Source: Chiloscyllium plagiosum (taxonomy: Eukaryota). From it: a stretch of DNA of 33,861 nt. Each line of letters begins with the position of its first letter. The stretch's first letter is position 1. The position numbers and the translations under genes are program-made. Under the pieces are notes generated by a model. The model ran no database searches, was not told the DNA's origin, and saw only the letters and a program-made list of their open reading frames with translations. This document shows, one piece after another, positions 3,321 through 32,470 of the stretch. The stretch covers positions 1-33,861 of the forward strand of contig NW_025213514.1 in the NCBI RefSeq assembly GCF_004010195.1. Direction: 5' to 3'.

Positions 3321-3410
3321 AAAAATGTGTTGCTGGAAAAGCGCAGCAGGTCAGGCAGCATCCAAGGAACAGGAGAATCGACGTTTCGGGCATAAGCCCT
3401 TCTTCAGGAA
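3321..3410 (-). mobile_element. Penelope-like terminal repeat fragment with hammerhead motif
   Basis: Homologous to the terminus of the GIY-YIG element at 12030-12123. Minus strand reads CTGAAGA-A-GGGC-TTAT-GCCC-GAAAC-GTC at 3407-3380. Confidence 0.8.
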
Positions 3411-5422
3411 TGGTCTTTGAGGGACCCTAGTCTCTCCCTAGTTACGCTTTTGTCCTTAACTGTAAAAACTCTTTGGATTCTCCTTAATTCTATTTGCCAA
3501 AGCTATCTTATGTCCCCTTTTTGCCCTCCTCATTTCCCTCTTAAGTATACTCCTACTTCCTTTATACTCTTCTAAGGATTCACTCGATCTATCCTGTCTA
3601 TACCTTACATTTGCTTCCTTCTTTTTCTTAACCAAACCCTCAATTTCTTTAGTCATCCAGCATTCCCTATACCTACCAACCTTTCCTTTCACCCTAACAG
3701 GAATATACTATCTCTGGACTCTCATTCTTTCATTTCTGAAGGCTTCCCATTTTCCAGCCGTCCCTTTACCTGCAGACATCTGCCCCCAGTCAGCTTTTGA
3801 AAGATCTGGCCTAATACCATCAAAATTAGCCTTTCTCCAATTTGGAACTTCAACTTTTAGATCTGGTCTATCCTTTTCTGTCACTATTTTAAAACTCATA
3901 GAATTATGGTCGCTGGCTCCAAAGTGCTCCCCAACTGACACCTCAGTCACCTGTCCTGCCTTATTTCCCAAAATCCCCTACCATAACCACCCTATTATTC
4001 TTACAGATAACAAATTTCCTTACAAGTTTGTTTCTCAATTTCCCTCTGACTATTAGGGGGTCTATCCCAATCCCAATAAGGTGATAATCCTTTTCTTATT
4101 TCTCAGTTTCACCCAAATAACTTCCCTGGATGTATTTCGGGGAATATCCTCCCTCAGCACAGCTGTAATGCTATCCCTTATCAAAAATGCCACTCCCCCT
4201 CCTCTCTTGCCTCCCTTTCTATCCTTCCCGTAGCATTTGTACCCTGGAACATTAAGCTGCCAGTCCTGCCCATCCCTAAGCCATGTTTCTGTAATTGCTA
4301 TGATATCCCAGTCCCATGTTCCTAACCATGCCCTGAGTTCATCTGCCTTCCCTGTTAGACTCCTTGCATTGAAATAAGTGCAGTTTAATTTATCAGTCCT
4401 GCCATGTTCTCTGCTTTGTCTCTGTCTGCCCTGACTGTTTGACTCGCTTCTGTTCTCAACTGTACCAGTCTCAGATTGATCTCTTTCCTCATTATCCTCC
4501 TGGGTCCCACCCACCTTACTAGTTTAAATCTTCCTGATCAGCTCTAGCAAATATCCCTGCCAGTATGATAGACCCTTCCAATTTAGGTGCAATCCGTCCT
4601 TCTTGTACAGGTCACTTCTACTGCAAAACAGCTTCCAATGATCCAAAAATGTGAATCCTTCTCCCATACAGCAGCTCCTCAGCCATGCATTCATCTGCTC
4701 TATCCCCCTATTCCTGGCCTCGCTAGCTAGTAGCAATGAGCATAATCCAGATCTTACTACTCTCAAGAACCTCCTTTTTTGACTTTCTGCCTAACTCTCT
4801 GTAATCTCTTCAGAATCTCAACCTTTTCCCTTCCTATGTCATTGATTCCAATGTGTACAATGACCTCCCGCTGGCCCGTCTCCCCCTCGAGAATATTCTG
4901 TCCCCTCTCTGAGACATCATTGAAATTGACACAGGGAAGCAGCATACCATTCTGATTTTTCTCTGCTAGCCACAGAGACGTCTGTCTGTACCTCAGACTA
5001 GAAAGTCCCCATAACAATTGATCTCTTGGAACTCGATGTACCCTTCATTGCATTAGAGCCGGTCTCAATACCAGAAACTTGGCTGTTCATGCTGTGTTCC
5101 CTTGAGAATCCATCACCCCCTATATTTTCCAAAACAGCATACCTGTTTGAAATGGGGATAGCCACAGAAGAGTCCTGCTCTACCTATCTACTTCTTTTAC
5201 CTTTCCTCGAGTTAACCCATCTATGTGACTGTATCTGCGACTTTGCTCCCTTCCTATAACTGTCATTCATCACATCCCCTTGTTCTTGTAAATTCCTCAT
5301 TGGCTCGAACTGTCTCTTCAACCAATCCATTTGATCTGATAAGATTTGCAACCAACGGTATTTATTGCAAGTATAATCCTCAGTAATACGTAAATTCTCC
5401 CTCAACTCCCACATCCGACAAG
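3411..5422 (-). mobile_element. CR1-clade LINE subfamily A, 5' half (ORF1 Zn-finger and esterase; ORF2 endonuclease and tether), disrupted
   Basis: ORF1 pieces CRMWE..DYTCNK, VIVHIGINDIG and DGLHLNWKG. ORF2 pieces YFNARSL, IAITETWL, RGGGVAFLI, SDHNS and IKENPKSFY. Frameshifts and an internal deletion near 3970. Confidence 0.93.
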
Positions 5423-7047
5423 AAGATTGGCTGTTGCAGGTTCCAGGGTTTAAATGTTTTAGTAGGGTCAGAGGTGGGGGTAAAAGAGGGGGAGGTGTGG
5501 CATTGCTTGTCAAAGATAGTATTACAGCGGTGGAAAGGACGATGGATGAAGACTCGCCATCTGAGGTAGTTTTGGCTGAGGTTAGGAATAGGGAAGGTGA
5601 GGTCACCCTGTTAGGAGTTTTCTACAGGCCTCCTAATAGTCCTAGAGACGGAGATGAAAGGATTGCGAGGATAATTCAGGAGAAGAGTGAAAGTATTAGG
5701 GTGGTTGTTATGGGGGACTTTAACTTTCCTGATATTGATTGGGAAAGCTATAGCTCAAGTTCGTTAGATGGGTCAGTGTTTGTCCAATGTGTGCAGGAGG
5801 GTTTCCTGACACAATATGTAGACAGGCCAACAAGAGGTGAGGCCATACTGGATTTGGTTCTGGGTAACGAACCAGGCCAGGTGTTAGAATTAAAGGTAGG
5901 TGAGCACTTTGGGGATAGTGACCATAATTCGGTGATTTTTACACTCGTGATGGAGAGGGATAAGTGTGTACTACAGGGCAAGAATTATAGCTGGGGTAAG
6001 GGAAATTATGATGCGGTGAGGCATGACTTAGGATGTGTGGCTTGGAAAAGTAGACTCCAAGGCAAGAGTGTAAATGATATGTGGAACTTGTCCAAGGGGC
6101 AACTATTGAGTGTCCTTGATAATTATGTACCTGCCAGGCAGGAAGGAAAGGGTCGTGCGAGGGAGCCGTGGTTTAATAAGGAATTGGAATCCCTTGTTAA
6201 ATGGAAGAGGGCAGCCTATCTCAAGATGAGACGTGAAGGTTCAATTGGGGCGATTGAGAGTTATAGGGTAGCCAGGAAGGACCTGAAGAGAGAGCAAAAA
6301 GCAGCAAGGAGGGGACATGAAAGGTCCTTAGTCGGTAGGATTAGGGAAAACCCTAAGGCTTTCTATAGGTATGTTAGGAATAAAAGAATGACTAGGGTAG
6401 GAATAGGTCCAGTCAAGGATAGTAGTGGGAAGTTGCGTGTAGAGGCGGAAGAGATTGGGGAGACACTGAATGAATACTTTTCTTCAGTATTCACTCAGGA
6501 ACAGGGCATTGTTGGCGGTGAGAATACTGAGGCACAAATAAGTAGAATGGATGGCCTTGAGGTATGTAGAGAAGAGGTGTTGGAAATCCTGGAAAAGGTG
6601 AAAATAGATAAGTCCCCTGGGCCTGATGGCATTTATCCTAGGATTCTCTGGGAAGCAAGGGAGGAGATTGCAGAGCCATTGGCCTTAATTTTTATGTCCT
6701 CTTTGTCTACAGGAGTAGTCCCAGAAGACTGGAGGATAGCAAATGTGGTTCCCTTGTTCAAAAAGGGGAGTAGGGATAGCCCTAGTAACTATAGGCCGGT
6801 GAGTCTCACTTCTGTTGTGGGCAAAGTCTTAGAGAGAATTGTAAGGGATAGGATTTATGAACATCTGGATAGGAATAATGTGATCAAAGATAGTCAGCAT
6901 GGTTTTGTGAAGGGCAAGTCGTGCCTCACAAACCTTATTGAATTCTTTGAAAAGGTGACGAAGGAGGATGATGAGGGGAAAGCGGTAGATGTGGTATATA
7001 TGGATTGTAGTAAGGCGTTTGATAAGGTCCCCCATGGTAGACTACAA
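5423..7047 (+). mobile_element. CR1-clade LINE subfamily B ORF2 segment (endonuclease to RT N-terminal domains), 539 uninterrupted codons, truncated at both ends
   Basis: ORF 5434-7053: RGGGVALLV, YRPPN, GDFNFPDIDW, LDLVL, SDHNSV, KSPGPDGI, PLFKKG, NYRPVSLTS, QHGF, KAFDKVPHGRL. It stops before the catalytic FADD motif. Confidence 0.95.
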
Positions 7048-7552
7048 CATTAATGGGTAGTAGATAGCTTTGTTGGAGAATTGTTCTAAGTGAATTCTGG
7101 AAACAAAATCATAGGTTTGCAGCAATTACATTGTGTTGTCATGTACCTCTACAAAGTTATTCTGCTCTAACAGGAACAGTAATCTCTTTGATTTTGTTAT
7201 ACTGCAGTTCCCCAACTACTGGAGTGAACATGCTTTAGGCAACTACAATATTTTAAACAAATTACATGATAATTCTGAGCACAAAAGAGAAATTCTTGCA
7301 ATAGCTGCTCACTGCCATTTCTCTCTAGATTTGATGTATTATGACTAATCATATAGCATAGAGATATGGAACATTTTCCTCGCTATAGTAGTGCAGGCTG
7401 TTGCGAAGTGCTTCAGAATAGATGTTGCATTTTCAGAGAAAAAGAGAGAAGTCAAATGTCATAGTATTTGTGAAGAGTGTAGCCAATGATGAAGAAACAG
7501 TGTGAAATAAATCACTTTATTTCCACTAAGACTAGTCATATAACTTATCACT

Positions 7553-8761: not shown

Positions 8762-8822
8762 ATAGATTAGATTCCCTACAGTGTGGAAACAGGCCCTTCG
8801 GCCCAACCAGTCCACATTGACC
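8762..8822 (-). mobile_element. V-SINE/LINE shared 3' tail fragment
   Basis: Reverse complement of the tail at 3180-3235. Confidence 0.65.
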
Positions 8823-8964
8823 CTGAAGAAGGGCTTTCCTGAAGAAGGGCTTATGCCTGAAACGTCGATCCTCCTGTTCCTTGGATGCTGCCTGACCTGC
8901 TGCGCTTTTCCAGCAACACATTTTCAGCTCTGATCTCCAGCATCTGCAGCCCTCACTTTCTCTC
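8823..8964 (+). mobile_element. Penelope-like terminal repeat with hammerhead motif
   Basis: CTGAAGA(8839-8845)-A-GGGC-TTAT-GCCT-GAAAC-GTC, preceded by a partial duplicate of the motif start. Reverse complement of 15396-15525. Confidence 0.8.
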
Positions 8965-12028: not shown

Positions 12029-13041
12029 ATCGAGAGTGTGGTACTGAAAATGCACAGCATGTCAGGCAGCATCCGAGGAGCAGGAGAATCAACGTTTCAG
12101 GCATAAGCCCTTCATCAGGAATGAGGTTTGTGGGCCGAGGGGCTGAGAGGTAAATGGGAGGAGGGTGATGCTGGGTTTGGGGGGCTGGGTTGTAGGGAAG
12201 GCACCTGAGCATGCATTAAGTAGATGAAAGTGGGGGAGAAGGTGATAGGTCAGAGAGGAGGGTGGAGCAGATAGATGGTTCAGGTTAGGAGGGAAGTGCC
12301 GATTCGGAGGCTTGGGATTAGGCTAAGGTGAGGGGAGGAGAAATGAGGAAACTGGTAAAATCCACCTTATTCTCATGAAGTTGCAGGGTTCCAAGGTGGA
12401 AAAGGAGGCATTCTTCCTCCAGGCATTGGGTGGTTAGGGCTTGGCGATGGAGGAGGCCCAGAACCTGCATGACTTTGGTGGAGTGGGACAGGGAGTTGAA
12501 GTGTTCACCAATTGGATGGTGGAGTTGGTTGGTGCGGTTGTCCCAGAGATGTTCTCTGAAACGATCTGCCGGCGTCCTGTCTCCCCAATGTAGGGGAGAC
12601 CACATCAGTTGGAACGGATACATTAGTGGAGATACAGGTAAATTTCTGTCGGATGTGGTCATCCTGGGAACAGGTGCGGCAGAGGTGGCAGAAGCATCTG
12701 TTTCCAGGATGACCAATTCCACCAAAGAAAATCTCAGATGGCCACCTTCTTCAAAGACTGCAATTTCCCCTTGCACATGCTCGATGACACCCTCCTTGAT
12801 GGAGTGGGAGGGGGAGTTGGAGTGTTTAGCTACGGGACGGTGGGGGCCGGTTGATGTGGGTGTCCCAGAGTTGTTCTCTAAAATGATCCTCAAGTAGGCG
12901 TCCTATCTCCCCCATGTCGAGGAGACTACATCAGGTGCAATGGATGCAGTAGATGACATTTGTGGCGGTACAGGTAAATTTCTGTCAGATGTGGAAAGAT
13001 CCTTTGGGTCCTTGGACAGAGGTGAGCACTCTTGACTCTGA
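12029..13041 (-). mobile_element. Penelope-like element: two tandem partial GIY-YIG endonuclease copies, 3' terminal repeat with hammerhead motif, and a short inverted terminal piece
   Basis: ORF 12318-12893 contains DRFREHL, PIGEHFNS.SHS, VLGLL and LEEECLLFHLGTLQ, typical of the PLE GIY-YIG C-terminus. 12780-13000 repeats 12450-12670. Hammerhead core at 12118-12091. 13027-13041 is an inverted piece of the terminus. Confidence 0.85.
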
Positions 13042-14509: not shown

Positions 14510-15395
14510 GTGTGGGGTGGGATGAAAAATTATTTTAACGCCTCTGGATGTGTACATTTTTAAAAAATTGCAATCGTGGAATCGAATCTGAGTAGCGTTT
14601 TATCTCGGATCTGGTGCAACAAATGGCTCATGTTTGGGGGTGAAATCTATCCCTATCACTTAACGTTTGGTGCATTTTTTTTGTGGGTTTCGATAGTTTT
14701 CCTACCCCGCTGGCTTGGTGTGATCTCTTTAAAAATACACATACAATCCGCTCTGTTGGAGAGTCAGGGATATTCGATGTGTATGTGTTTCGTTCACTGG
14801 TCCATTTTAAGTCTGCCCTTCTGTGCCGTCGCATTGCAAGCACATTTTTTTTGCTCTGAAAATGGTGGTAAACAGACTTTATTTGTGTGTGTTTTTGTTT
14901 GGAATTAAATGAGAGGCGATGGTGGCGGTTGGAGACGTCTCGCCCAGTCAGACGGTGGGTGGGTGGGTGGGGGTTGGAGTTGGAGTCAGCTCGTGTTGAG
15001 GGAGGTGGGTGGCTGGGGCTGAGGGGTGGAAATGGGAATCCGGTTCAGGAGGTGGGAATCCGTTCCGGGATTGTGGAACGATCCTCTCCTGAGCCCTGAG
15101 CACATACATTCCAGGCAGCAGCACCAATTACAGCAACGAATCTGAAGACTATCTTGCTCAAAAGCGTGGGGGTCGCCCGTTAGTTGCTGCTGTTGCTTGT
15201 TTGCTCGCTCTCGCAGTAAATAAGGCAAAGGAAGGACGTGCATGAAAGTGCACAGCCCAGTAACAAATGTAACAAACAGTTCACTTGATGCTGCTTGTTT
15301 CAATACCACCTCTCAAAAAATAGCTAGACGGGGCGTTTGATTGCATACTCTACTCAGCCAGGTTGCTGGCTGATCTCTGCTAACTTCATATTTGT

Positions 15396-15557
15396 GGGAG
15401 AAAGTGAGGACTGCGAATGCTGGAGATCAGAGCTGAAAATGTGTTGCTGGAAAAGCGCAGCAGGTCAGGCAGCATCCAAGGAGCAGGAGAATCGACGTTT
15501 CGGGCATGAGCCCTTCTTCAGGAATTCTTCATTGCTTTTCCAGCAACACATTTTCAA
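15396..15557 (-). mobile_element. Short Penelope-terminus insertion with hammerhead motif, inverted end piece and 16-bp TSD
   Basis: Flanked by CTAACTTCATATTTGT (15380-15395) and CTAACTTTATATTTGT (15558-15573). Hammerhead core at 15521-15494; 15534-15556 inverts 15434-15457. Confidence 0.85.
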
Positions 15558-16229
15558 CTAACTTTATATTTGTATCAGTTTGTGTTTGCTGCTCGGAGAT
15601 GAGAGAGAAATTGTGGAGGAGAAAAGCATGGCAAGATGTCCTCGCCTGATATCTAGCCCAGCAGCGGCCGGGCAACCGATCGTTGTTGGAGTTATCTTTA
15701 CTGATTACTTTAGAGCAAAATAAAACCTGGTCAAACGGCAGTTCTTTGTATGCAATGTTCAGCTCAATACAGATGAGCGATGCAAGCTCGGACTTCCCTG
15801 ATTAGGCTCGAATGGTACAACATTGTGCATTTACCAAATTCTCGGACAAGGATATTCGGATTACTGTACCACATTTTAAAAAAATCTCCATTATAAAGTA
15901 TTAGCGTTGTGCACATCATATTAATGTAATCACATTGTGTTTAAGGCAGGAGACAATTGTTTGTACCATGTTGTGACCAGAATAGTAAGTGTTGGCTTTT
16001 AGTTCTCTCTTTTCTATTAGCTCACAAATGAATGGAACTTGGTGAACTTGTGCCCTTGAACAGGAATGATGCAGTGAGGATTACAAGAAATATGGATACA
16101 AAAAGGTTGCTGTTTCTGATGCATGGTAAAATGTCAGAGCTTTACAGTATAGAAAGAGACTCTTTGGCCCATAATGCACGTGTCGGATACAAGTATCTAA
16201 ATGGGGTGAAAATCAGTCAATGCTAAGAA

Positions 16230-17117
16230 TCGAAATTGGAAAAGGACAGATTGTTGGGAATTGGAAGTTGAACTGGAGTGTGTTGATTGGAAGTGCATTT
16301 GGTGGATAAAACAGTGGATGAAAAATGGGAGAATTTCAGAAAGGGAGACAAATAGAGTGCAAGCTAGGTACATACCTGTGAGAAATAAATACAGGGTAAC
16401 TAAAGCAAGAGTATCTTGCCTGATTAAAGATATTGTTGAGAAACTAAGGAAGAAAAGGTGGGCAAATGATTGATGAGAATAATAATATCAATAGAAATCA
16501 GAAAGAGTATCTCAAATGCATGAGAAGGGCTAAGAGGAAGAATGAGGAAACAATGTCAGGCTCTGCTAAACCAAACAGTAAAATATTCTTCAAGTGTATT
16601 AATAGTAAAAGTGAAAGACAGAGTGGGGTCAATGACAGTGGTACTAAAAGAACACTACTATGCTTCTGTCTTTACAAAATTACAGATGGTCACAGTGGCC
16701 TGGTTGAAAATGTGTGTGTTGAGCAACTAAATGGTAAATGATAGAGAACAGGTCCTAAAAAGGCTGTCTGCACTCCAGGTAGCCAAGTCACCAGGCCCAG
16801 ATGAGGTGCATCCTAGATTGCTGAGAGAGTTATGGGAGCAAACTGCGGATCTGTTGACAGAAATTTTCCGGGCCCCTCTGAACATAGGATGAGTCCCAGG
16901 GGACTGGAGGATTGTAAATGTGATACCGTTGTTTAAGAAAGAGACAAAGAATAACCCAGGAAACTAGAGACCTGTCAATTTGACATCAATAGTGGGAAAA
17001 CAGATGGAGGCCAGATTTACAGATGAGGTAAGTATGCACTTGGAGTAAAATAAGTTAATACTAGATTATCAATATGGCTTTGTCAAGGGCAGGGCATATC
17101 TGACAAATTTAATTGGG
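16230..17117 (+). mobile_element. Old CR1 subfamily C ORF2, left part
   Basis: Remnants KIFFKCINSK, KSPGPDEVHPRLLRE, PLFKK, RPVNLTS, QYGFVKGR and LTNLI; continues at 18693. Confidence 0.85.
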
Positions 17118-18692
17118 TGTTGAGAATGTTAGATGACTAAAGAAATTGAGGTTTTGGTAAAAAAAAGCATGTCAGGTATAGGCAGCAGAGATTGAGTGAA
17201 TCCTTGGAGTACAAAAACAGTAAGAGTACGCTTAAGAGGGCAATCAGGAGGGCAGAAAGGGCACATGAGATAGCTTTGCAAATAGGATTAAGGACAATCC
17301 AAAGGGATTTTTAAAAGTACATTAAGGACAAAAGAGTAATTAGGGAGAGAATATGGCCCCTCAAAGATCAGCAAGGTAGCCTTTGTGTGCAACTGTAGGA
17401 GATGGGGGAGATACTAAACAAGTGTTTACTGTGGAGAAGGACGTGGAAGATATAGAATGTGGGGAACTCAATGGTGACCTATTGAAAAATATCCACAAGA
17501 CAGAGGAAGAGGTGCTGGATGTCTTAAAATGCATAAAGACGAATAAATCTCCTGGACATGATGAGGTGTACCCAACAACTCTGTGGGAAGCTAGGGAAGT
17601 GATTGCTGGGGCCCTTGCTGAGATATTTGTATAATTGATAATCGCAGGTGAGGTGCTGGAGGTTGGCTAACGTGGTGCCACTTCTTAAGAAAGATGGTAA
17701 GGAAAAGCCAAGGAACTATAGACCGGCGAGCCTGATGTCACTGGTGGGCAAGTTGTTGGAGGGAATCCTGAGGAACAGGGTTTACATGTATTTGGAAAGG
17801 CAAGGACTGATTAGGGCGAGTTAACATGGCTCACAAACTTGATTGAGCTATTTGAAGAAGTAACAAAGCGGATTGATGAGGACAGAGTGATACCGTTGTT
17901 TAAGAAAGAGACAAAGAATAACCCAGGAAACTAGAGACCTGTCAATTTGACATCAATAGTGGGAAAACAGATGGAGGCCAGATTTACAGATGAGGCAGTG
18001 GACATGATCTATATGGACTTCAGTAAGGTGTTCGACAAGGTCCCCCATAGTAGACTGGTTAGCAATGTTAGATCGCATGGATTTACAGTGAGAACTAGCC
18101 ATATGGATACAGAACTGGCTTGAAGATAGAAGGTCGTGGAGATGGGTTGCTTTTCAGACTGGAGGCCTGTGACCAATGGTGTACCACAAAAGTCAGTACT
18201 GGGTCCACTGCATTTTGTCATTGATATCAATGATTTGAATGTGAACATCGGAGGTATAGTTAGTAAGTTGCAGATGACTCCAAATTTGGAGTGATGGGCA
18301 GCGAAGAAGGTTACCTCAGAGTACAATGGGATCTTGATCAGATGGACGAATGGGCTGAAGAGTGGCAGATGGAGTTTAATTTAGGTAAATGTGAGGTGCT
18401 GCATTTTGGAAAGGCAAATCAGGGCAGGACTAACATATTTAACTGTAAGGTCTTGGGGAATGTTGCTCAACAGAGACCTTGGAGTGCAGGTTCATTATTC
18501 CTTGAAAGTGGAATTGCAGGTAGATAGGGTAGTGAAGAAGGCATTCCTTTATTGGCCAGAGCATTGAGTATTGGAGTTGGGAGGTAGTGTTGTGGCTGTA
18601 CAGGACATTGGTTCAGCCACTTTTGGAATATTGTGTTGGCGTGGACCAGTTGGACCGAAGGGTCTGTTTCTATACTGTACATCTCTATGACT
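17118..18692 (+). mobile_element. CR1 subfamily A, 5'-truncated, nested inside subfamily C
   Basis: Start matches the reverse complement of 3420-3690. RT motifs MDFSKVFDKVPH and WQMEFN.GKCEVLHFG; ends CATCTCTATGACT. Confidence 0.9.
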
Positions 18693-19900
18693 AAGTTATT
18701 TGAGATGACACAGATAGTTGAGGGTAGTGCTGTGGATGTTGTATATTTGGACTTGCAGAAAACATTTAATACAATACTGCATGACAGCTTGGTTAGTAAA
18801 TGAGAAATGTTCGGGATTGATGGGTCCTTGGGAGCATGGATTTACATGTTGGCTGAAAGATAGGAAACAGCGGATAGGTGTCGATGGGCATTTCTCAGAG
18901 GAGAAGAGTTGGAAGTGGTGTTTCTCAGGGATCGGTGTTGGGACCTTTGCTTTTTCTGATTTATAAAAACGATTTAGAGATGGGTGATGAGGGCAAACTC
19001 TCTAAATTTGCAGAGGATATTAAGCGAGGGAGAATAGTGAATTGAGAGGATGATGCTGAGTGACTTCAAAGACATATTGTTAAGTTGAGAACTTGGGCAG
19101 ACTCCTGGTAAATGCTCTTCAATGTCGAGAAACGTGAGTAATGCATTTTGGTCGAAGAAGCATGGAGAGACAATACAGACTCAATAGTATGATGTTTAGG
19201 GGAGTACAGGAGCAGAGGGACCTCTGGGTTCATACCCATGATTCTCTTAAGGTGGCTGGGCATGTTGAAACAATTGTTAAGAAGGCATATAGGATCCTTT
19301 GGTTTATAAATAGAGGCATAGAGTATAAAAGCGAGGAAGTGTTGCTGTACCCCTACAATCATTGGTCTCACCACATTTGGAGTACTGTGTTCAGTTCTGG
19401 GCAGTTTAGTCAAGGAAAGATGTTCAAGCTCTGTTGAGACCTCCAAGCAAGATTTTCGAGAATGATACCAGGAAGGAAGGAGTTTAGGTACAAGGAAATC
19501 GTGGAGAGATTGGGCTTATTCTCCTTGAAGTAGAGAAGATTAATAGGTAACCTTATTGAGGTGTTCAAAATTATCAACAATTTTGACAGGATGAAGAAGG
19601 ATGCACTGTTTCCACTAGTTGGTACGTCAGTAACTCGGGATCCCAATTTCAAGACAGCAAGAAAACCAGGAGTAAGATGAGGAGTAATCTCTTTCCTCAG
19701 AGTTGCTAGGATTTGGGATATGCTGCCTGGGAGCGTGGTGAGGCAAATTTCATAGGAGGTTTCAAAAGAGAGCTGGATATATTTTGAAAGTGATGAAGTG
19801 AGAAGGTTATGGAGATAGAGTTGGAGAACGGACCAGCTACATAACTCTTTCAGGAGCTGGTCAAGTGACCACCTCTGAACTGTAAAATTCTGTGTTTCTG
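18693..19900 (+). mobile_element. Old CR1 subfamily C, right part (RT to 3' end)
   Basis: Resumes with EGSAVDVVYLD, WLKDRKQ, KFAEDIK, MHFGRRS, PHLEYCVQFW and ERLGLFSL. Confidence 0.85.
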
Positions 19901-22207: not shown

Positions 22208-24060
22208 CGTAGAATCCATACAGTATGGAAGCAGGCCATTTGGCCCATTGAGTCCACATCGACATTGTGAAGACCATAAGGCATAGGAGTGGAAGTAAGG
22301 CCATTCAGCCCATCGAGTCATTCAATCGTGGCTGATGGGCATTTCAGCGCCACTTAACCGCACTCTCCTGTATCCTTTAATTCCTTGTGAGATTAAGAGT
22401 TGATCAATCTCTGCAGATAAGACATTTCATGTCCCAGCCTCCACTGCGCTCCATGGCAATGAGTTCCACAGGCCCACCACTCTCTGGCTGGAAGAAATGT
22501 CTCCTCATTTATGTTTTAAATTGACCCCCTCTAATTCTAAGGCTGTGTCCATGGATCCTAGTATTCCCGCTTGACTGAAACAAATTCCCGGCATCCACCC
22601 TTTCTAAGCCATGCATTATCTTCTAAGTTTCTATTAGATCTCCCCTCAACCTTCTAAACTCTAATGAATACAATCCCAGGATCCTCAGCCATTCATCTTA
22701 TGTTAGGCCTACCATTCCAGTGATCATCTGTGTGAATCTCCGCTGGACACGCTCCATTGCCACTATGTCCTTCCTGAGGTGTGGGGCCCAAAACTGGTCA
22801 CAGTACTCCAAATGGGGCCTAACCAGAGCTTTATAAAGTCTCAGTAGCACATCGCTGCTTTTACATTTCAGCCCTCTTGAGATAAATGGCAACATTACAT
22901 TTGCTTTCTTAACCACAGACTCAACCTTCAAGTCATCCTTTACAGGATTCTGGACTAGCATTCCCAGATCCCTTTGTACATTGGCTTAAGAATTTTCTCA
23001 CTGTTTAGAAAATAGTCCGTCCCTGTATTTTTTTTTCTGATGTGCAAGACCTCGCATTTGCTCACATTGAATTTCATCAGCCATTTCTTGGACCACTCTC
23101 CTAAACTGTCTAAATCTTTCTGCAGCCTCCCCACCTCCTCAGAACTACCTGCTGTCCGCCTAACTTCGTATCATCGTCAAACTTTGCCAGAATGTCCAGA
23201 GTCCCTTCATCCAGATCATTAATATATAAAGTGAACAGCTGCGGCCCCAACACTGAACCCTGCGGGGCACCAGTTATCACTAGTTGCTATTCCGAAAAAG
23301 AACCTTTTATCCCAACTCTCTGCCTTCTGTCGTTCAGCCAAACATCAATCCATGCCAGTAGCTCACTTCGAACACCATGAGCCCCTGACCTTACTCAACC
23401 TCCCGTGAGGCACCTTATCAAAGGCCTTTTGGAAGTCTTGGTAGATAAAATCCACTGGGCTTCCCTGGTCTAACCTACTTGTTACCTCTTCAAAGAATTC
23501 TAACAGGTTTGTCAGGCACAACATCCCCTTACTAAATCCATGCTGATTTGTTCTAATCCAACCCTGCAATTCCAAGAATTTGGAAATCTCATCCTTAATG
23601 GTGGATTCTAGAATTTTACTTACAACCGAGGTTAGGCTAATTGGCCAATAATTTTCCATCTTTTGTCTCGATCCTTTCTTGAACAAGGGGTTACAACAGC
23701 GATTTTCCAATCATCTGGTACTTTCCCTGACTCCAGTGATTTTTGAAAGATTACAGCCAATGCCTCCACTATTTCTTCAGCCACCTCCCTCAGAAGTCTA
23801 GGATGTAGCCAGGAGGTTTATCAATTTTCAGACATTTTAGCTTTTCTCGTACTTTGTCTTTTGTGATGGCTACCGTACTCAACTCTGCTTCTTGACTCTC
23901 CTTAATTGTTGGGATATTACTCATGTTTTCCACAGTGAAGACTGACACGAAGTATTTATTAAGTTCTTCAGCTGTTTCCTTATCTCCCATCACTAGCCTT
24001 CCTGCATCAATTTGGATCGGCCCAATTTCTACTTTTGTCTCTCGTTTGTTTCTTACTTAC
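22208..24060 (-). mobile_element. CR1 subfamily D, RT and 3' UTR (with a short tail fragment at 22208-22268)
   Basis: ORFs 23790-23993, 23363-23710 (PLFKKG, PISLTS, QHGF, DFQKAFDKVPHGRL) and 22698-22961 (LYKALVRPHLEYC.QFWAP). Confidence 0.92.
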
Positions 24061-24074
24061 TGAACATTCTACCC

Positions 24075-24290
24075 AGATACCACCCCCAACCCTATCCCTC
24101 TAACCCTGCATTTTCTATGGCTAATCCACTGAGCTTGTACATCTTTGGACTGTAAGAGGAAATCTGAGTATCCAGAGAAAACCTATGCAGAAATGGGGAG
24201 GATATGCAAACTCCACACACAGTTGCCCAAGCGTGGAATTAAACCCAAGTCCTTGGTGCTATGAGGCAGCAGTGCTAATCACTGAGCCCC
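24075..24290 (-). mobile_element. V-SINE (HE1-like)
   Basis: Minus strand has A box GGCTCAGTGATTAG and B-box-like GGTTTAATTCC; its V domain matches 3000-3120. Confidence 0.8.
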
Positions 24291-24294
24291 TATT

Positions 24295-25232
24295 ATTGTT
24301 TACTTGGACTTTCAAAGTGCTTTAGATAAGTACCAAACCAAGCTTCTGCAAGCCACAGCTTCTGATATTGTATTATCAGAATATTTTGAACTGGGTTGAG
24401 GATTGCCTTGACCACATTGGCATAAGGCCATTGTAGATGGATTTAAATCTGTTTAACTATATTAGCATTCATGTCCTGCAAGGTTAAATGGGACCCCTGC
24501 CCTTCAATTTCATTGATCTACATGTGGGTCTCTATTTGCATTTTTGGAGGTAATTTTAAGGCATGCGTTGGTTTTATGCCTGTGGACAATGTTCCTCTAC
24601 TTCAAGTGAATTTTGATATGTGAGGAGATTGAACAGGTGACTCTCAAATGACGTTTAAATCATTGTGCATATATGTGTGTTTATGTATACCCATCAGGAT
24701 TCATGAATGAAATTATAACTAAAGCAAGTGAGGTGTTGAAAATAGTCCGTCCCTGTATTCTTTCTTTCTGATGTGCAAGACCTCACTTTTGCTCACATTG
24801 AATTTCATTAGCCATTTCTTGGACCACTCTCCTAAACTGAATTTGACCAGACCTCACTTTGAATATGATGTCCAGTTTTGGTTATCTCAAGTTTGGTGAC
24901 TTTGGGCAGGATACAGCAGAGAGCAATCATGCTAATTTTGAGCATGAGGCATCTCCATTATCAAGATAACTCCAATAAATCAAGACCCTGCATTTGTGAG
25001 ATGCATAGATTTCAAAATGGTCTGATTTGAGGTTTATAAGATCATGAAGAGGATATGTTTTGTTCCAGTTCAGTTTGTTCAAGTTAAGGAAGGACCAGAT
25101 GTTGCAACTTTGTTATATAAGACCACATCTAGTTTAGGTGTCAGGAGGTGGTTTATTTCATGGAATCTTGGATTCTCTGCAATACTAGTTTGTGGTAGGT
25201 GTCAACTGACTGAATTCTTCTGACTGGACTTG
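24295..25232 (+). mobile_element. Very old CR1/L2-like RT to 3' fragment
   Basis: Remnants VYLDFQSALDK, RPHFEYDVQFW and LI*GL*DHE (LIEVYKIM-like). Confidence 0.6.
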
Positions 25233-25246
25233 GATGATTTCTTGTT

Positions 25247-25451
25247 GTATGTGTAGTGCTGGGAAAGCACAGTAGATCAGGCAGCATCCAAGGAGCAGGA
25301 GAATCAATGTTTCGGGCAGAAGCCCTTCATCAGGAATGCCCGAAACGTCGATTCTCCTGCTCCTCGGATGCTGCCTGACCCGCTGTGCTTTTCCAGCACC
25401 ACACTCTTGACTCTGATCTCAAGTATCTGCAGTCCTCACTTTTTCTCTTCA
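25247..25451. mobile_element. Fold-back Penelope-terminus insertion with 14-bp TSD
   Basis: Inverted arms at 25251-25318 and 25337-25404; GATGATTTCTTGTT direct repeat at 25233-25246 and 25452-25465. Confidence 0.85.
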
Positions 25452-25739
25452 GATGATTTCTTGTTTGGTTGGAAATAATTGTTTGCAGAATGTAAGTACT
25501 ACAACAAATTTGGACAAGGGTGATCTCTTTAACTTGTTTTGATTACTCTGATTGGAAAAGGGGTATTTTCCCCTTACTTGACCTGGAGTTTTAAAATTTG
25601 TTCTGCATTTCTCTGGAGATCAATTGGATTTTGGATGGAGTAGAATGTATTTTCATAAAGAGACAGAAGAGTATTCGTTATATGTGTTAACATTAGACTA
25701 ATTTGAGGCGACATAGAACAAACTTCAAGGAAAAGGCCA

Positions 25740-25870: not shown

Positions 25871-26024
25871 GAGAAACAAGTTATCTGATACAATGGAGCT
25901 ATGCTCGTGTTTGTACTCCACATGAATCTTCTTCACACCCTACTTTATCTCACCATATCATGATAAATTTCTGTTATTTTTTGCCTCCTATTGAGCTCGC
26001 TCTTACTTAAGTACATCTGTATAT

Positions 26025-26533
26025 ACTCCCTGATATAGGAAGGATGTTGTGAAACTTGAAAGGGTTTACGAGGGTGTTGCCAGGATTAGAGGGCTCGAAT
26101 GAAGGGGGGAGGCTGAATAGGGTGGGGCTATTTTCCCTTGAGTGTCAGAGGCTGAGGGGTGATCTTATGAGATTTATAAAATCATGAGGGGCATGGACAG
26201 GGTAGATCGATAAGGTCTTTTCCCTGAGGTGGGGAGCCCAAAAAGGGAGGGCATAGATTTAAGGTGAGAGGGGAAAGATTTAAAATGAACTGAAAGGGCA
26301 ACTTTTTCGCGCAGAGGGTAGTCCATGTATGGAATGAGCTGCCAGAGGAAGTGCTGGAGGCTAGTGCAATTTACAACAATTAAAAGACATCTGGATGGAT
26401 ATATGAAAAGGAAGGATTTAGAGAGATATGGGCTAAATGCTCACAAGTGGGACTAGATTTATTTGGCTGTCTGGTCAGCATGGACGAGTTGGACCGAAAG
26501 GTCTGTTTTCATGCTGTATATCTCTATGACTCT
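26025..26533 (+). mobile_element. CR1 subfamily A 3' end
   Basis: YRKDVVKLERV, LFSLE, FFAQRVV..WNELPEEV; tail TCTCTATGACTCT; matches 1770-2245. Confidence 0.9.
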
Positions 26534-26774
26534 TAGTTCCACATTCTGAATGAACAAATTTCTTGAGAATTCTTCAATGGATTAATTAGCAGCTATCCTT
26601 TCTGTGACCCTTTGCTTTGGATTTAAAACCTCCAACTGCTAAACTAAATGATATTTGTGTTCTAAAATTCAGACCATTGAATGACAATGGAAATAACTAC
26701 TTTGCCTTGTTTATCAACATTGCCCTCAAATTTGCTCAGCACAGGAGATAGTGTGATTAGAAAGGGTTGTAATG

Positions 26775-26954
26775 TGTATTTCGTTAACATGAATTTGTTA
26801 TAACACGATTGTTGAATTGGGGATTGTTTATAAAACACAAAGTTTTACAGTGTGTATTGGTTATAACATGATTCCGGCCTGATTAGTTTAAATGGTGCTG
26901 CTATTACAGGATTGCATGGGAATGGAACTACACATTTTAGTAGAACTGACTGTA
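26775..26954. mobile_element. Possible pogo/Tigger-like DNA transposon end
   Basis: Ends GAACTGACTG-TA (TA+CAGT terminus on minus) with repeated subterminal GTTATAACA(C/T)GATT motifs. No matching left TIR seen. Confidence 0.35.
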
Positions 26955-27339
26955 AACAAATTCATAAGAGACTGGGGATGACTTTTTTTAAGTCAATAAA
27001 ACATTCACTCCATTAGCCTATGGAGTTTTCAGAATTTTTCGGAACTATCTTGCTTTTCATTTGTGTTTGTATTTCATTACTATGTGGTTTGCTTTGGAGA
27101 ATAGTTTAGCCAGATCTGGATTATTTGAATACTGTAGGGTTTCACTATCTTTTACTAAAGCAGGCAATCATCACAAGATCATGCATACATAATCCCCCAC
27201 TTCTTATTTTTGCGAACAATCTGTGCCATAAACCATTATGTCCACTTCCCTCCATGATGTGCAGCAATATTTGGATATCTTAACTGTTAAGACTGCGATG
27301 ATCCATTTTACCTTTTTGATATGTACTAATGCTGTTGAG

Positions 27340-27812
27340 TTGGATTTAAACTAGATTAGCAGGGGATCCTGACAAGTAGTTCAGAACGGAGAGAAGCTGA
27401 GTTAGAATTAGAGTCTGGAAGACAGAGGAAATAAATATAGGTTGGCTAAGGAAGAAATGAGTTTAGCAAGGCTAAATGGAATGTATTTTAATGTAAGGAG
27501 TCTGAGCAATCAGGTAGATGAACTGAGGGCACAGATAGGCTTGTGGGAATATGATGTTGTTACATTCGAGATTTGACTCAACGATGGACAGGGTTGGCAA
27601 CTCAGCATTCCTGGTTAATAGGGTATTCAGACAAGATAAAGAAGGGAATAGAAGGGGAGTTGCTGAAGGAATCAATTAAAGTAGTGAAGAGGGATGATAT
27701 TTTGGAAGGATCATGAAATGAAACCTTATGGGTAGAGGTGAAAAAAAAACCTCAGTGGCAAAACAAACACACTATTGGGTGTGTAGTGTAGGGGTCAATC
27801 AAGGAGCATCAG
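27340..27812 (+). mobile_element. Old CR1, end of ORF1 and start of endonuclease
   Basis: MYFNVRSLSNQVDELRAQIGLWEYDVV, DGQGWQLSIPG and LWVEV; continues at ~29095. Confidence 0.8.
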
Positions 27813-28548
27813 ACATAGTGATAGAGTTGTACAGCATGGTAAAAGACCCTTCGTTCCAACTCGTCTATGCTGACCAGATATCTTAAATTCATCTAGTCCC
27901 CTTTCCCAGCATTTGTACCCACCCAGATGCCTTTTAAATGCTGGAATTGCACTAGCCTCCTCCACTTCCTTTGGCAGTTCATTCCATACACGCACCACCT
28001 TCTATGTGTGGAAAAAATTGCCCCTTGGGACCCCTTTATATCTTTCCCCTCTCACTTTAAACCTATGCCCTGGGAAAAATAATTTTTCTACTTAGCCTAT
28101 CCATGCCCCTTATGATTTTATAAACCCATATTCGGTCATCCATAAGTCTCCAAGCTGCAGGAAAAATAGCCCAAGCCTATTCAGCCACTCTCTATAGCTC
28201 AAATCCTCCAATCCTGGAAAAATCTTTGTAAACCTTTACTGCACTCTTTCAAGCGTAACAACATTTTTCCTATAGCAGGGAGAGCAGAATTGAATGCACT
28301 CTTCCAAAAGTGGCCTAACCAATGTTCTGTATAGCTACATGACATCCCAACTTGTATAAAGGCAAGTATACTACCCTTTTACTATTCTGCGTATCTGTGA
28401 CTCCACCTTCAAGGAACTATGAACCTGTACCCCAAGTCGTTTCTCCCAGCATCCTGCCATTAACTGTCGTAAGTCCTGCCCTGATTTGGCACACCACAAT
28501 GCAGCAACTCACATTTATGTAAGTTAAATTCCCATCTGCCACTCAGCC
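27813..28548 (-). mobile_element. CR1 subfamily A 3' portion
   Basis: Reverse complement of 1460-2245 and 26025-26533; WNELPKEV in ORF 27795-27998. Confidence 0.88.
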
Positions 28549-28554
28549 TGAGCA

Positions 28555-30455: not shown

Positions 30456-30880
30456 CTGATTGTTTTCTGTGTTGACCCGAAAGACATGTATTGTGATATC
30501 CATGAATAATTCGTTGGTCTTCACAATGAAAAAGGATGATGCAGGTATTGATGTCAGGTTGAAAGACTGTGAAATATTAGAGCACATCCCCAGAGACAGA
30601 GATGAAGAATTTGGGGGTTTCCGCAACCTTAAAAGTGGAATCTGCATGTCTGATTGAGATGTATCCTTGGCTGTTGGAGGCGGCTTGGGTGGCGATAGTA
30701 CGGATGCTGCAGTAACTTCCAAATTCTCTCTGGCTCCACCTGAGGAATCGGAGGACTGCTGATGTTATTCCATTGTTACAAAAAGAATTAAGGGAAAGCC
30801 AGGAATTAAAAGCCAATCAGTGTAATTTTGATGGAAGGAAAATATTTGAAAGAATATCTGAGGAGTGGAATGTATTTAAA
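30456..30880 (+). mobile_element. Old CR1 continuation (pre-RT and RT start)
   Basis: SLVFTMKKDD, *MYPWLL, DC*CYSIV (EDWR.ADVIPL-like) and KPISV. Confidence 0.6.
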
Positions 30881-30881
30881 A

Positions 30882-32185
30882 TAGAACATAGAACATAGAA
30901 GAATACAGCGCAGTAGAGGCCCTTTGGCCCTCGACGTTGCGCCGATCCAAGCCCACCTAACCTACACGAGCCCACTATCCTCCATATGCCTATCCAATGC
31001 CCGCTTAAATGCCCATAAAGAGGGAGAGTCCACCACTGCTACTGGCAGGGCATTCCATGAACTCACGACTCGCTGAGTAAAGAACCTACCCCTAACATCT
31101 GTCCTATACCTACCACCCCTTAATTTATAGCTATGCCCCCTTGTAATAGCTGACTCCATACGTGGAAAAAGGTTCTCACGGTCAAACCTATCTAAACCCC
31201 TCATCATCTTGTACACCTCTATCAAGTCACCCCTAAACCTTCTTTTCTCCAATGAAAACAGCCCCAAGTGCCTCAGCCTTTCCTCATACGATCTTCCTAT
31301 TATACCGGGCAACATCCTGGTAAACCTCCTCTGCACCCGTTCCAGTGCCTCCACATCCTTCCTATAGTATGGCGACCAAAACTGCACACAATACTCCAGA
31401 TGCGGCCGCACCAGAGTCTTATACAACTGCAACATGAAATACTGCACTCTAGAACATAGAAATATACAGCGCAGTACAGGCCCTTTGGCCCTCGATGTTG
31501 CGCTGATCCAAGCCCACCTAACCTACACTAGCCCACTTTCCTCCATATGCCTATCCAATGCCCGCTTAAATGCCCATAATGAGGGAGAGTCCACCACTGC
31601 TACTGGCAGGGCATTCCATGAACTCACGACTCGCTGAGTAAAGAACCTACCCCGAACATCTGTCCTATACCTACCCCCCTTAATTTAAAGCTATGCCCCC
31701 TTGTAATAGCTGACTCCATACGTTTGAACCTTTGCCATCAACTTCTACCCTCTGTCTTCTTCCAGCCAGCCAATTCCTAATCCAAACCTCCAACTCACCC
31801 TCAATGCCATACCTCCGTATTTTTTGCAGTAGTCTACCATGGGGAACCTTATCAAACGCCTTACTAAAATCCATATACACCACATCTACCGCTTTCCCCT
31901 CGTCCACCTCCTTAGTCACCTTCTCAAAGAATTCAATAAGATTTGTGAGGCACGATCTGCCCTTCACAAAACCATGCTGACTATCCTTGATCACATTATT
32001 CCTATCCAGATGTTCATAAATCCTATCCCTTACAATTCTTTCTAAGACTTTGCCCACAACAGAAGTGAGACTCACCGGCCTATAGTTACTAGGGTTATCC
32101 CTACTCCCCCTTGAACAAGGGAACCACATTTGCTAGCCTCCAGTCTTCTGGCACTACTCCTGTAGACAACGAGGACATAAAAATG
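30882..32185 (-). mobile_element. CR1 subfamily B composite: 3' end (30882-31437), second 3' UTR copy (31450-31722), RT fragment (31723-32185)
   Basis: ORF 30962-31447 (LVRPHLEYCVQFWSP, FFTQRVVSSWNALP). ORF 31680-32129 is nearly identical to the end of ORF 5434-7053. (TTCTATG)n tails. Confidence 0.93.
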
Positions 32186-32470
32186 TCATGGATGAATCAA
32201 GGATAGCATGAATTTGTTATAAAGTTTGACAAATTTGAATTGTTTGATGTAACTAGGTATGTTAAGAAGAATAATGCATTTTAATGTGGTATGTATGGAC
32301 ATTAACAAGGCTTTTGATAAGATCGCTCAAGGCAGACCAGTCAAGAAAGTAAAAGCTCTTCTGGTATTCAAGGCAAATTGAGTGAAATGCAGGAAGCAGA
32401 ATGTGATGGTAAGTATTTCTGTTTCTAATGGATTTTCACGGGGCTCGTTGATGGGGCTCTTAATGTTTGG
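32186..32470 (+). mobile_element. Old CR1 RT continuation
   Basis: NQG*HEF, NVVCMDINKAFDKIAQGRP and GFSRGSLMG remnants. Confidence 0.65.

Follow-up and report, generated by a model that had tools for sequence, protein, structure and literature searches.

Five hammerhead motifs and the insertions that carry them

The window, by which we mean the whole stretch of 33,861 nucleotides analysed here, contains five hammerhead motifs, each of which sits in a repeat of 90 to 130 nt. The insertions and their parts are given below; signed positions are counted from C3 of the ribozyme core.

3322..3412, minus strand: Penelope-like pseudo-LTR stub that starts 5 nt before C3 and ends at +85, without tail; 99% identical to the reference copy L006
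3380..3407, minus strand: minimal type I hammerhead (CUGAAGA, extra A, 4-bp stem II, GAAA, CG, UC)
Between 3380 and 3379, minus strand: predicted cut of the motif at 3380..3407; helix I with 3/4 pairs
8822..8962, plus strand: stub with tail (ends at +123), hammerhead at 8839-8866, partial motif duplicate at 8822-8837
12030..12996, minus strand: longer 5'-truncated copy with GIY-YIG endonuclease remnant, pseudo-LTR and hammerhead at 12118-12091 (GUU site)
12345-12566, minus strand: C-terminal part of the GIY-YIG remnant; internal duplication 12475-12658/12796-12994
12148..12154, minus strand: TTTACCT, AT-rich element at the TATA position, 32 nt before A(-4) at 12122 in an initiator-like TCATTC; putative promoter element
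15397..15559, minus strand: single insertion made up of a stub with tail (15525-15397, start at -4), hammerhead 15521-15494 and a short inverted arm (15533-15559)
25252..25445, no single strand: fold-back insertion with one arm at 25338-25252 (minus) that carries a decayed hammerhead (25333-25306) and an inverted arm at 25338-25445 (plus)

All five motifs had been listed in a preliminary description of this DNA, and we found them again on the same strands and at the same coordinates with 0 mismatches; 100 dinucleotide shuffles gave 0 matches. The core elements CUGANGA, GAAA and NUH are present in five of five copies. Helix II has 4 bp, with a predicted stem II probability of 0.89 to 1.00 when folded in short context, the extra nucleotide after position 9 is A, and 10.1-11.1 is G-C in three copies and G-U in two. 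The palindrome ACGU, described for the motif as a whole, is found in four of the five; in copy 25333 a CpG change has given ACAU and AUU instead. Copy 12118 has GUU at the cleavage triplet. It had also been pointed out that stem II is kept while its loop varies. This is so, but the change in the stem is a single C/T difference (G-C to G-U) among near-identical repeat copies, and the five window copies alone therefore provide no covariation evidence. The warning that helix I is weak was justified: there are 3/4 pairs and a U-U mismatch in four copies, and 2/4 pairs in copy 8839, because the partial motif duplicate (8822-8837) replaces the 5' strand. An Rfam covariance-model scan returned eight matches up to an E value of 10, none of them to a hammerhead family. 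The Rfam hammerhead models include helix III.

Two of the insertions combine an inverted arm with flanking target-site-like repeats. The insertion at 15397..15559 lies between 16-nt repeats (15380-15395 and 15558-15573; 15/16 alike), and the fold-back insertion lies between 14-nt repeats at 25233-25246 and 25452-25465. The inverted arm of the latter spans +16 to +123, tail included; fold prediction buries the ribozyme of this insertion in a long hairpin and gives stem II a probability of 0.00. The window copies are 3 to 10 kb apart, single or inverted, and form no tandem array.

Many CR1-type LINE fragments are scattered around these insertions (104-2246, 3411-7053, 16600-18700, 22600-24900, 26000-28550 and 30880-32190), with Pfam hits to endonuclease, reverse transcriptase (RT) and GDSL-like ORF1, a 558-codon open frame (5377-7053) and an inverted pair (6688-7045/31829-32184, 94%). 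The segment 13700-14300 is GC-rich, has several GATTGAC motifs and looks like a promoter or CpG island; no gene was identified in it. We also noted a perfect 109-nt duplicate (16920-17028/17887-17995) that may be an assembly effect, a 275-nt duplicate at 96% (30889-31163/31450-31723) and an N run at 1852-2056, which is an assembly gap.

The Penelope-like host and the fold across families

The Penelope origin proposed for the motifs is supported by copy 12118, which is joined to a GIY-YIG remnant homologous to two other loci, L061 and L063. The hammerhead of this copy lies ~230 nt downstream of the decayed endonuclease (EN) frame, on the same (coding) strand. The remnant shares 71% DNA identity with L061 over 639 nt, where the domain passes the Pfam GIY-YIG cut-off (23.5 bits against 22.6), and 76% amino acid identity with the RT-EN frame of L063, which has RT motifs, a CxxxxCxxC linker and GIY-YIG all in one frame. 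Because Pfam searches of the window's own remnant and of the L063 frame gave no match, the identity of the remnant rests on its homology to L061 and L063. At a further locus, L045, RVT_1 was detected at an E value of 3.3e-06, below the Pfam cut-off. A zinc finger-like CX2-5CxxC linker between RT and EN was seen in the L061, L063 and L041 frames and is defined as a Neptune-type feature in PMC8557442. This linker points to a Neptune-type Penelope-like element (PLE) as the host. No full copy of the window's family with an ORF between two pseudo-LTRs (pLTRs), each bearing a hammerhead, was recovered among the loci examined, in which long candidates contained assembly gaps, and eight further stretches contained no full tandem element. 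An apparent 973-aa frame at L061 was rejected, being due to an assembly gap.

The high copy number predicted for the motif was borne out by 84,449 intact motifs in the genome, 69,916 of which are followed by GATT and 14,533 by GAAT; the GAAT subfamily has the full four helix I pairs. In 112 random 10-kb stretches (1.079 Mb) we found 192 copies, and five copies in 34 kb are an ordinary density for this genome. The 3' ends of the 192 copies cluster near +90 and +125 from C3, and this pair of ends is the Penelope tail. The same sample contained 35 head-to-head arm pairs, most with one 3' end of each kind. These pairs and the two 3' ends fit the Penelope hallmark of an inverted 5'-truncated copy with a 30- to 40-bp tail at one end.

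Between families, the core is identical at 9 to 11 of 11 positions, against 1 to 6 of 16 in the stems. Within family A, to which the window copies belong, the core shows no advantage over the 3' flank: G12 is retained in 83%, C15.2 in 77%, G16.2 in 74% and C17 in 83%, against 93 to 99% at +45..+56. CpGs occupy four positions in or next to the core, and for this reason it decays as fast as the flank or faster; only 32 of the 192 sampled copies keep core, palindrome and 3/4 helix I pairs. Since the family A core decays like its flanks, the dispersed copies look neutral, and the effect of selection is accordingly seen when source lineages are compared, not among copies after insertion. The 12-nt segment at +45..+56 (window 3351-3362 and equivalents), conserved to 93 to 99% in family A, is common to family D and is possibly a protein-binding or RT-start signal.

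A general hammerhead descriptor gave 78 hits in the 1.079 Mb, compared with 0, 2 and 2 in Markov controls and 1 in the reversed sequence, and the hits fall into several families with unrelated stems. Aligned by their cores, 11 representatives paired in 112 of 121 cells (mean of 2000 shuffles, 76.7; maximum, 91). MAFFT's own alignment paired only 76% of cells against 61.5% when shuffled, because three rows were shifted by one. The descriptor search required both the core and stem II, so that core identity and stem II pairing are partly built in, and the independent support comes from helix I, a CG/GC switch and a family with an exchanged core pair. Helix I, which the search never required, pairs in 11, 10, 9 and 6 of the 11 representatives (36/44 cells), using C-G, U-A, A-U and G-C, and reaches 4/4 pairs in the GAAT subfamily and in family D. 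Positions 15.2-16.2 are either CG or GC, so that the palindrome switches between ACGU and AGCU, and 15.1-16.1 stays palindromic. A sister family has U3-A8 in place of C3-G8; it gave 1,616 genome matches, with A8 in 100/100 among the matches listed and U3 in 10 of the 13 copies read. In this family (L181-L192, L253-L282; at least 1,616 copies) all 4 bp of helix I are formed, and the usual start follows a TATA box by 31 nt. The covariation check proposed for genomic copies thus supports the hammerhead fold across families (helix I at 36/44, ACGU/AGCU, U3-A8), and the identification as a minimal hammerhead with a palindromic helix III and an extra nucleotide after position 9 stands. We infer that the fold is under selection in source lineages and that copies decay neutrally once inserted.

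Copy ends and a probable start of the element RNA

To map where copies begin, each copy was anchored 3' of the ribozyme; 13 copies cut by gaps or edges and 16 that start at or beyond +37 were dropped, leaving 163 copies of family A. Just over half of them (83/163) start at -10..+4 of the core, some of the calls at -8/-9 in this random sample stemming from divergent subfamilies, and 4/163 start at the cut site (+27..+29), where the local expectation is 3.9. Among copies without an inverted arm (starts at -40..+36), 39/68 fall in the -10..+4 zone. The 85 copies that reach 90% identity or more start most often at A(-4), with 24 starts at -5..-2, 4 at -35..-11 and 2 at the cut. Likewise, 96 RNA reads lose their match exactly at A(-4) (raw poly(A) run, 2% read; host read-through). 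The genomic copy ends indicate that RT copied across the uncut ribozyme. A splice acceptor at about -27 was rejected as the cause of the pile-up, with 0 starts at -30..-21. We found no description of such a 5' pile-up in the open-access texts searched.

Of 156 copies examined for an AT-rich element, 56 have it, and in 50 of these it lies 31 to 33 nt before A(-4), with divergent spacers. A(-4) itself lies in the initiator-like TCATTC. TATA and initiator motifs are promoter consensus sequences. Family D carries TATAAAT at -35..-37, and 14 of its 30 starts fall in the zone, 8 of them at -4, with 0/30 at the cut site. Family B carries TATAAAT at -38; 48 of 97 starts lie at -9..+4, 6 at -40..-11, 22 beyond and 2 at the cut (n = 97 after one gap-cut row was dropped; ends from genome copies only). 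For family B we had predicted in advance a mode at -8 ± 1; this failed, the mode being -5, with 6/97 at -9..-7 against 9 at -4..-3, although the pile-up has its edge at -9/-11. Family C, which is Poseidon-type, has TATAAAT at -50 and no pile-up, and 22/30 copies run past -40. In three families, though not in a fourth, the zone follows a TATA-like box at a distance of ~30 nt, so that a transcription start is likely, not proven. One family B locus (L348:700-1530, minus strand) shows, in order, a TATA box, the hammerhead, ATTAAA/AATAAA with a GU-rich tract, the tail and an ATG frame of ~145 codons, an arrangement that amounts to an LTR-like layout. A rotifer pLTR has been described with motifs of the TATA and initiator type (PMC3846280). 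The layout with a TATA box before the ribozyme is not universal, since D. virilis Penelope has a TATA-less internal promoter and an intron before the ribozyme (PMC2377424).

Taking these results together, we consider it probable that the pseudo-LTR of a Neptune-type PLE carries the motifs as minimal type I hammerheads, that they would likely cut only as dimers or with the help of the element's protein in the RNA of source elements and are likely inert in stubs, and that short cDNA made from uncut RNA was inserted or folded back. Reverse transcription would start inside the RNA at +90 or +125, the tail ends; RT would copy straight across the uncut ribozyme and run off the 5' end of the RNA 4 to 8 nt before the core, ~30 nt behind the TATA-like box; and the short cDNA would be inserted as is or fold back to give inverted arms. 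A bolder extension of this scheme is conceivable, if somewhat doubtful. The hammerhead would then be the first structure of the mRNA, which would start 4 to 8 nt before the core, and the hundreds of thousands of stubs would be strong-stop cDNAs inserted before the template jump. Cleavage, triggered by protein or by dimer formation, would shed a capped leader of ~32 nt and act as a switch for uncapping or silencing the RNA; it would not prepare the template.

The pile-up could also arise at a real hammerhead without marking an RNA start, through the folded ribozyme, a bound protein or a short palindrome at the 5' edge (cDNA fold-back or jump). The zone does coincide with the 5' edge of helix I (-4 in families A and D, -3 in B), the family B mode is -5, the random sample contains the 35 head-to-head arm pairs as well as junctions in near-palindromes, and self-priming is argued for in PMC3846280. 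We nevertheless regard this reading as unlikely. Copies without arms peak in the same zone (39/68), starts thin sharply at TATA+30 in three families of differing sequence, family B starts thin at -9/-11 although its helix I ends at -3, and family C has the same fold and no pile-up.

Two other explanations have very little in their favor. The endonuclease of PAc, the Poseidon element of Anolis carolinensis, is reported to cleave in vitro at 5'-ATT-3' beyond the ORF-pLTR junction (PMC11167929), and family A has ATT at -4..-2, so the element's endonuclease might nick its own pseudo-LTR DNA just before the core and trim new copies; however, family D piles up at AGCT without ATT, family B piles up at ACAATCAC/ACAACCAC, and the family A ATT at +29 has no comparable peak, which makes such trimming highly improbable. 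We give equally little credence to efficient processing of the retrotransposition template by the ribozyme into cut or circular monomers, with scattered copies cutting host transcripts. PMC4209133 puts forward processing as its model, RT could likewise pass the site if the RNA were re-ligated into a circle, and dimers could form in cis in a short tandem of 224-nt units at L343. Yet starts at the cut number only 4/163, 2/97 and 0/30, a circular template would not explain a stop at -4, RNA read depth is smooth over the site, and the core, palindrome and 3/4 helix I pairs survive in only 32/192 copies.

Cleavage and comparison with known elements

Predicted folds speak against activity of these copies: a modelled double hammerhead of the window's best copies lies 5.7 to 5.9 kcal/mol above two free monomer folds, and that of the GAAT subfamily 1.1 kcal/mol above. 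The modelled dimer also faces competition from a slipped palindrome, in which GUCGAU pairs with itself. Predicted folds did not support lengthening helix I distally in family A. Neither the genome copy ends nor the RNA reads gave a sign of cutting at dispersed copies. The RNA data came from one raw poly(A) single-cell run, 2% read, with 1,860 matching reads, 93% of which run into host flanks; they represent host read-through, in which the element's own start is not visible. In this sample, depth passes smoothly over the cut site without a read pile-up, and no site was found where many RNA molecules begin or end. The scattered stub hammerheads are likely inert where they now sit.

Motif and host are of a known kind, the minimal PLE hammerhead (Cervera and De la Pena 2014), and what is new is a very high-copy member. 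Minimal hammerheads (min-HHRs) sit in the pLTRs of metazoan PLEs, including fish Xena, Poseidon and Neptune, and their cleavage is low and dimer-only (PMC4209133). Like them, the motifs here are type I, lack helix III, are palindromic at 15.2-16.2 and have an extra nucleotide between 9 and 10.1, G10.1-C11.1, a short helix I and mostly solitary truncated copies. The U3-A8 variant of the sister family is also reported among these min-HHRs, in Schistosoma Cercyon. In contrast, stem II here has 4 bp, not 7 to 8, helix I of the main subfamilies has a U-U mismatch, and the 84,449 intact motifs compare with ~4,000 in coelacanth and ~9,000 in Xenopus (PMC4209133). One of the two supplement files of that paper names no shark entry.

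An experimental parallel concerns PAc, in which RT starts at two internal sites that bound the tail, the template is uncut RNA (Frangieh 2024, PMC11167929) and the hammerhead cuts only with protein (PMC11167929). The elements studied here share the two 3' ends bounding the tail, the uncut RNA template and the lack of RNA reads ending at the cut. They differ in type, PAc being a Poseidon element whose start codon lies within the ribozyme and whose protein-assisted cutting has been shown, whereas ours are Neptune-type with a hammerhead predicted from sequence; no 5' pile-up is described for PAc in the available part of PMC11167929. The role of hammerheads in PLEs has been described as unclear (PMC8557442). 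The copy ends provide an in vivo record that uncut RNA served as template. If the pile-up marks the transcription start, the ribozyme would act at the cap, and pseudo-LTR formation would resemble strong-stop synthesis followed by strand transfer. Natural variants among the ~84,000 intact copies (4-bp or mismatched helix I, ACGU or AGCU, C3-G8 or U3-A8) form a test panel, with the U3-A8 family as a good natural control for cleavage.

Animal non-LTR retrozymes (bioRxiv 10.64898/2026.07.22.740005) resemble the elements here in deriving from PLE pLTRs and bearing hammerheads, and have been reported in one chondrichthyan. They are tandem, with at least two units that carry complete hammerheads, whereas the window has single or inverted stubs separated by kilobases; a short tandem was seen elsewhere, at L343. 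There, three GAAT-subfamily hammerheads lie in a retrozyme-like row (L343:2386-2930, minus strand), 224 and 320 nt apart. The tandem shows sequence 3' of the tail, and cis dimers could form in it.
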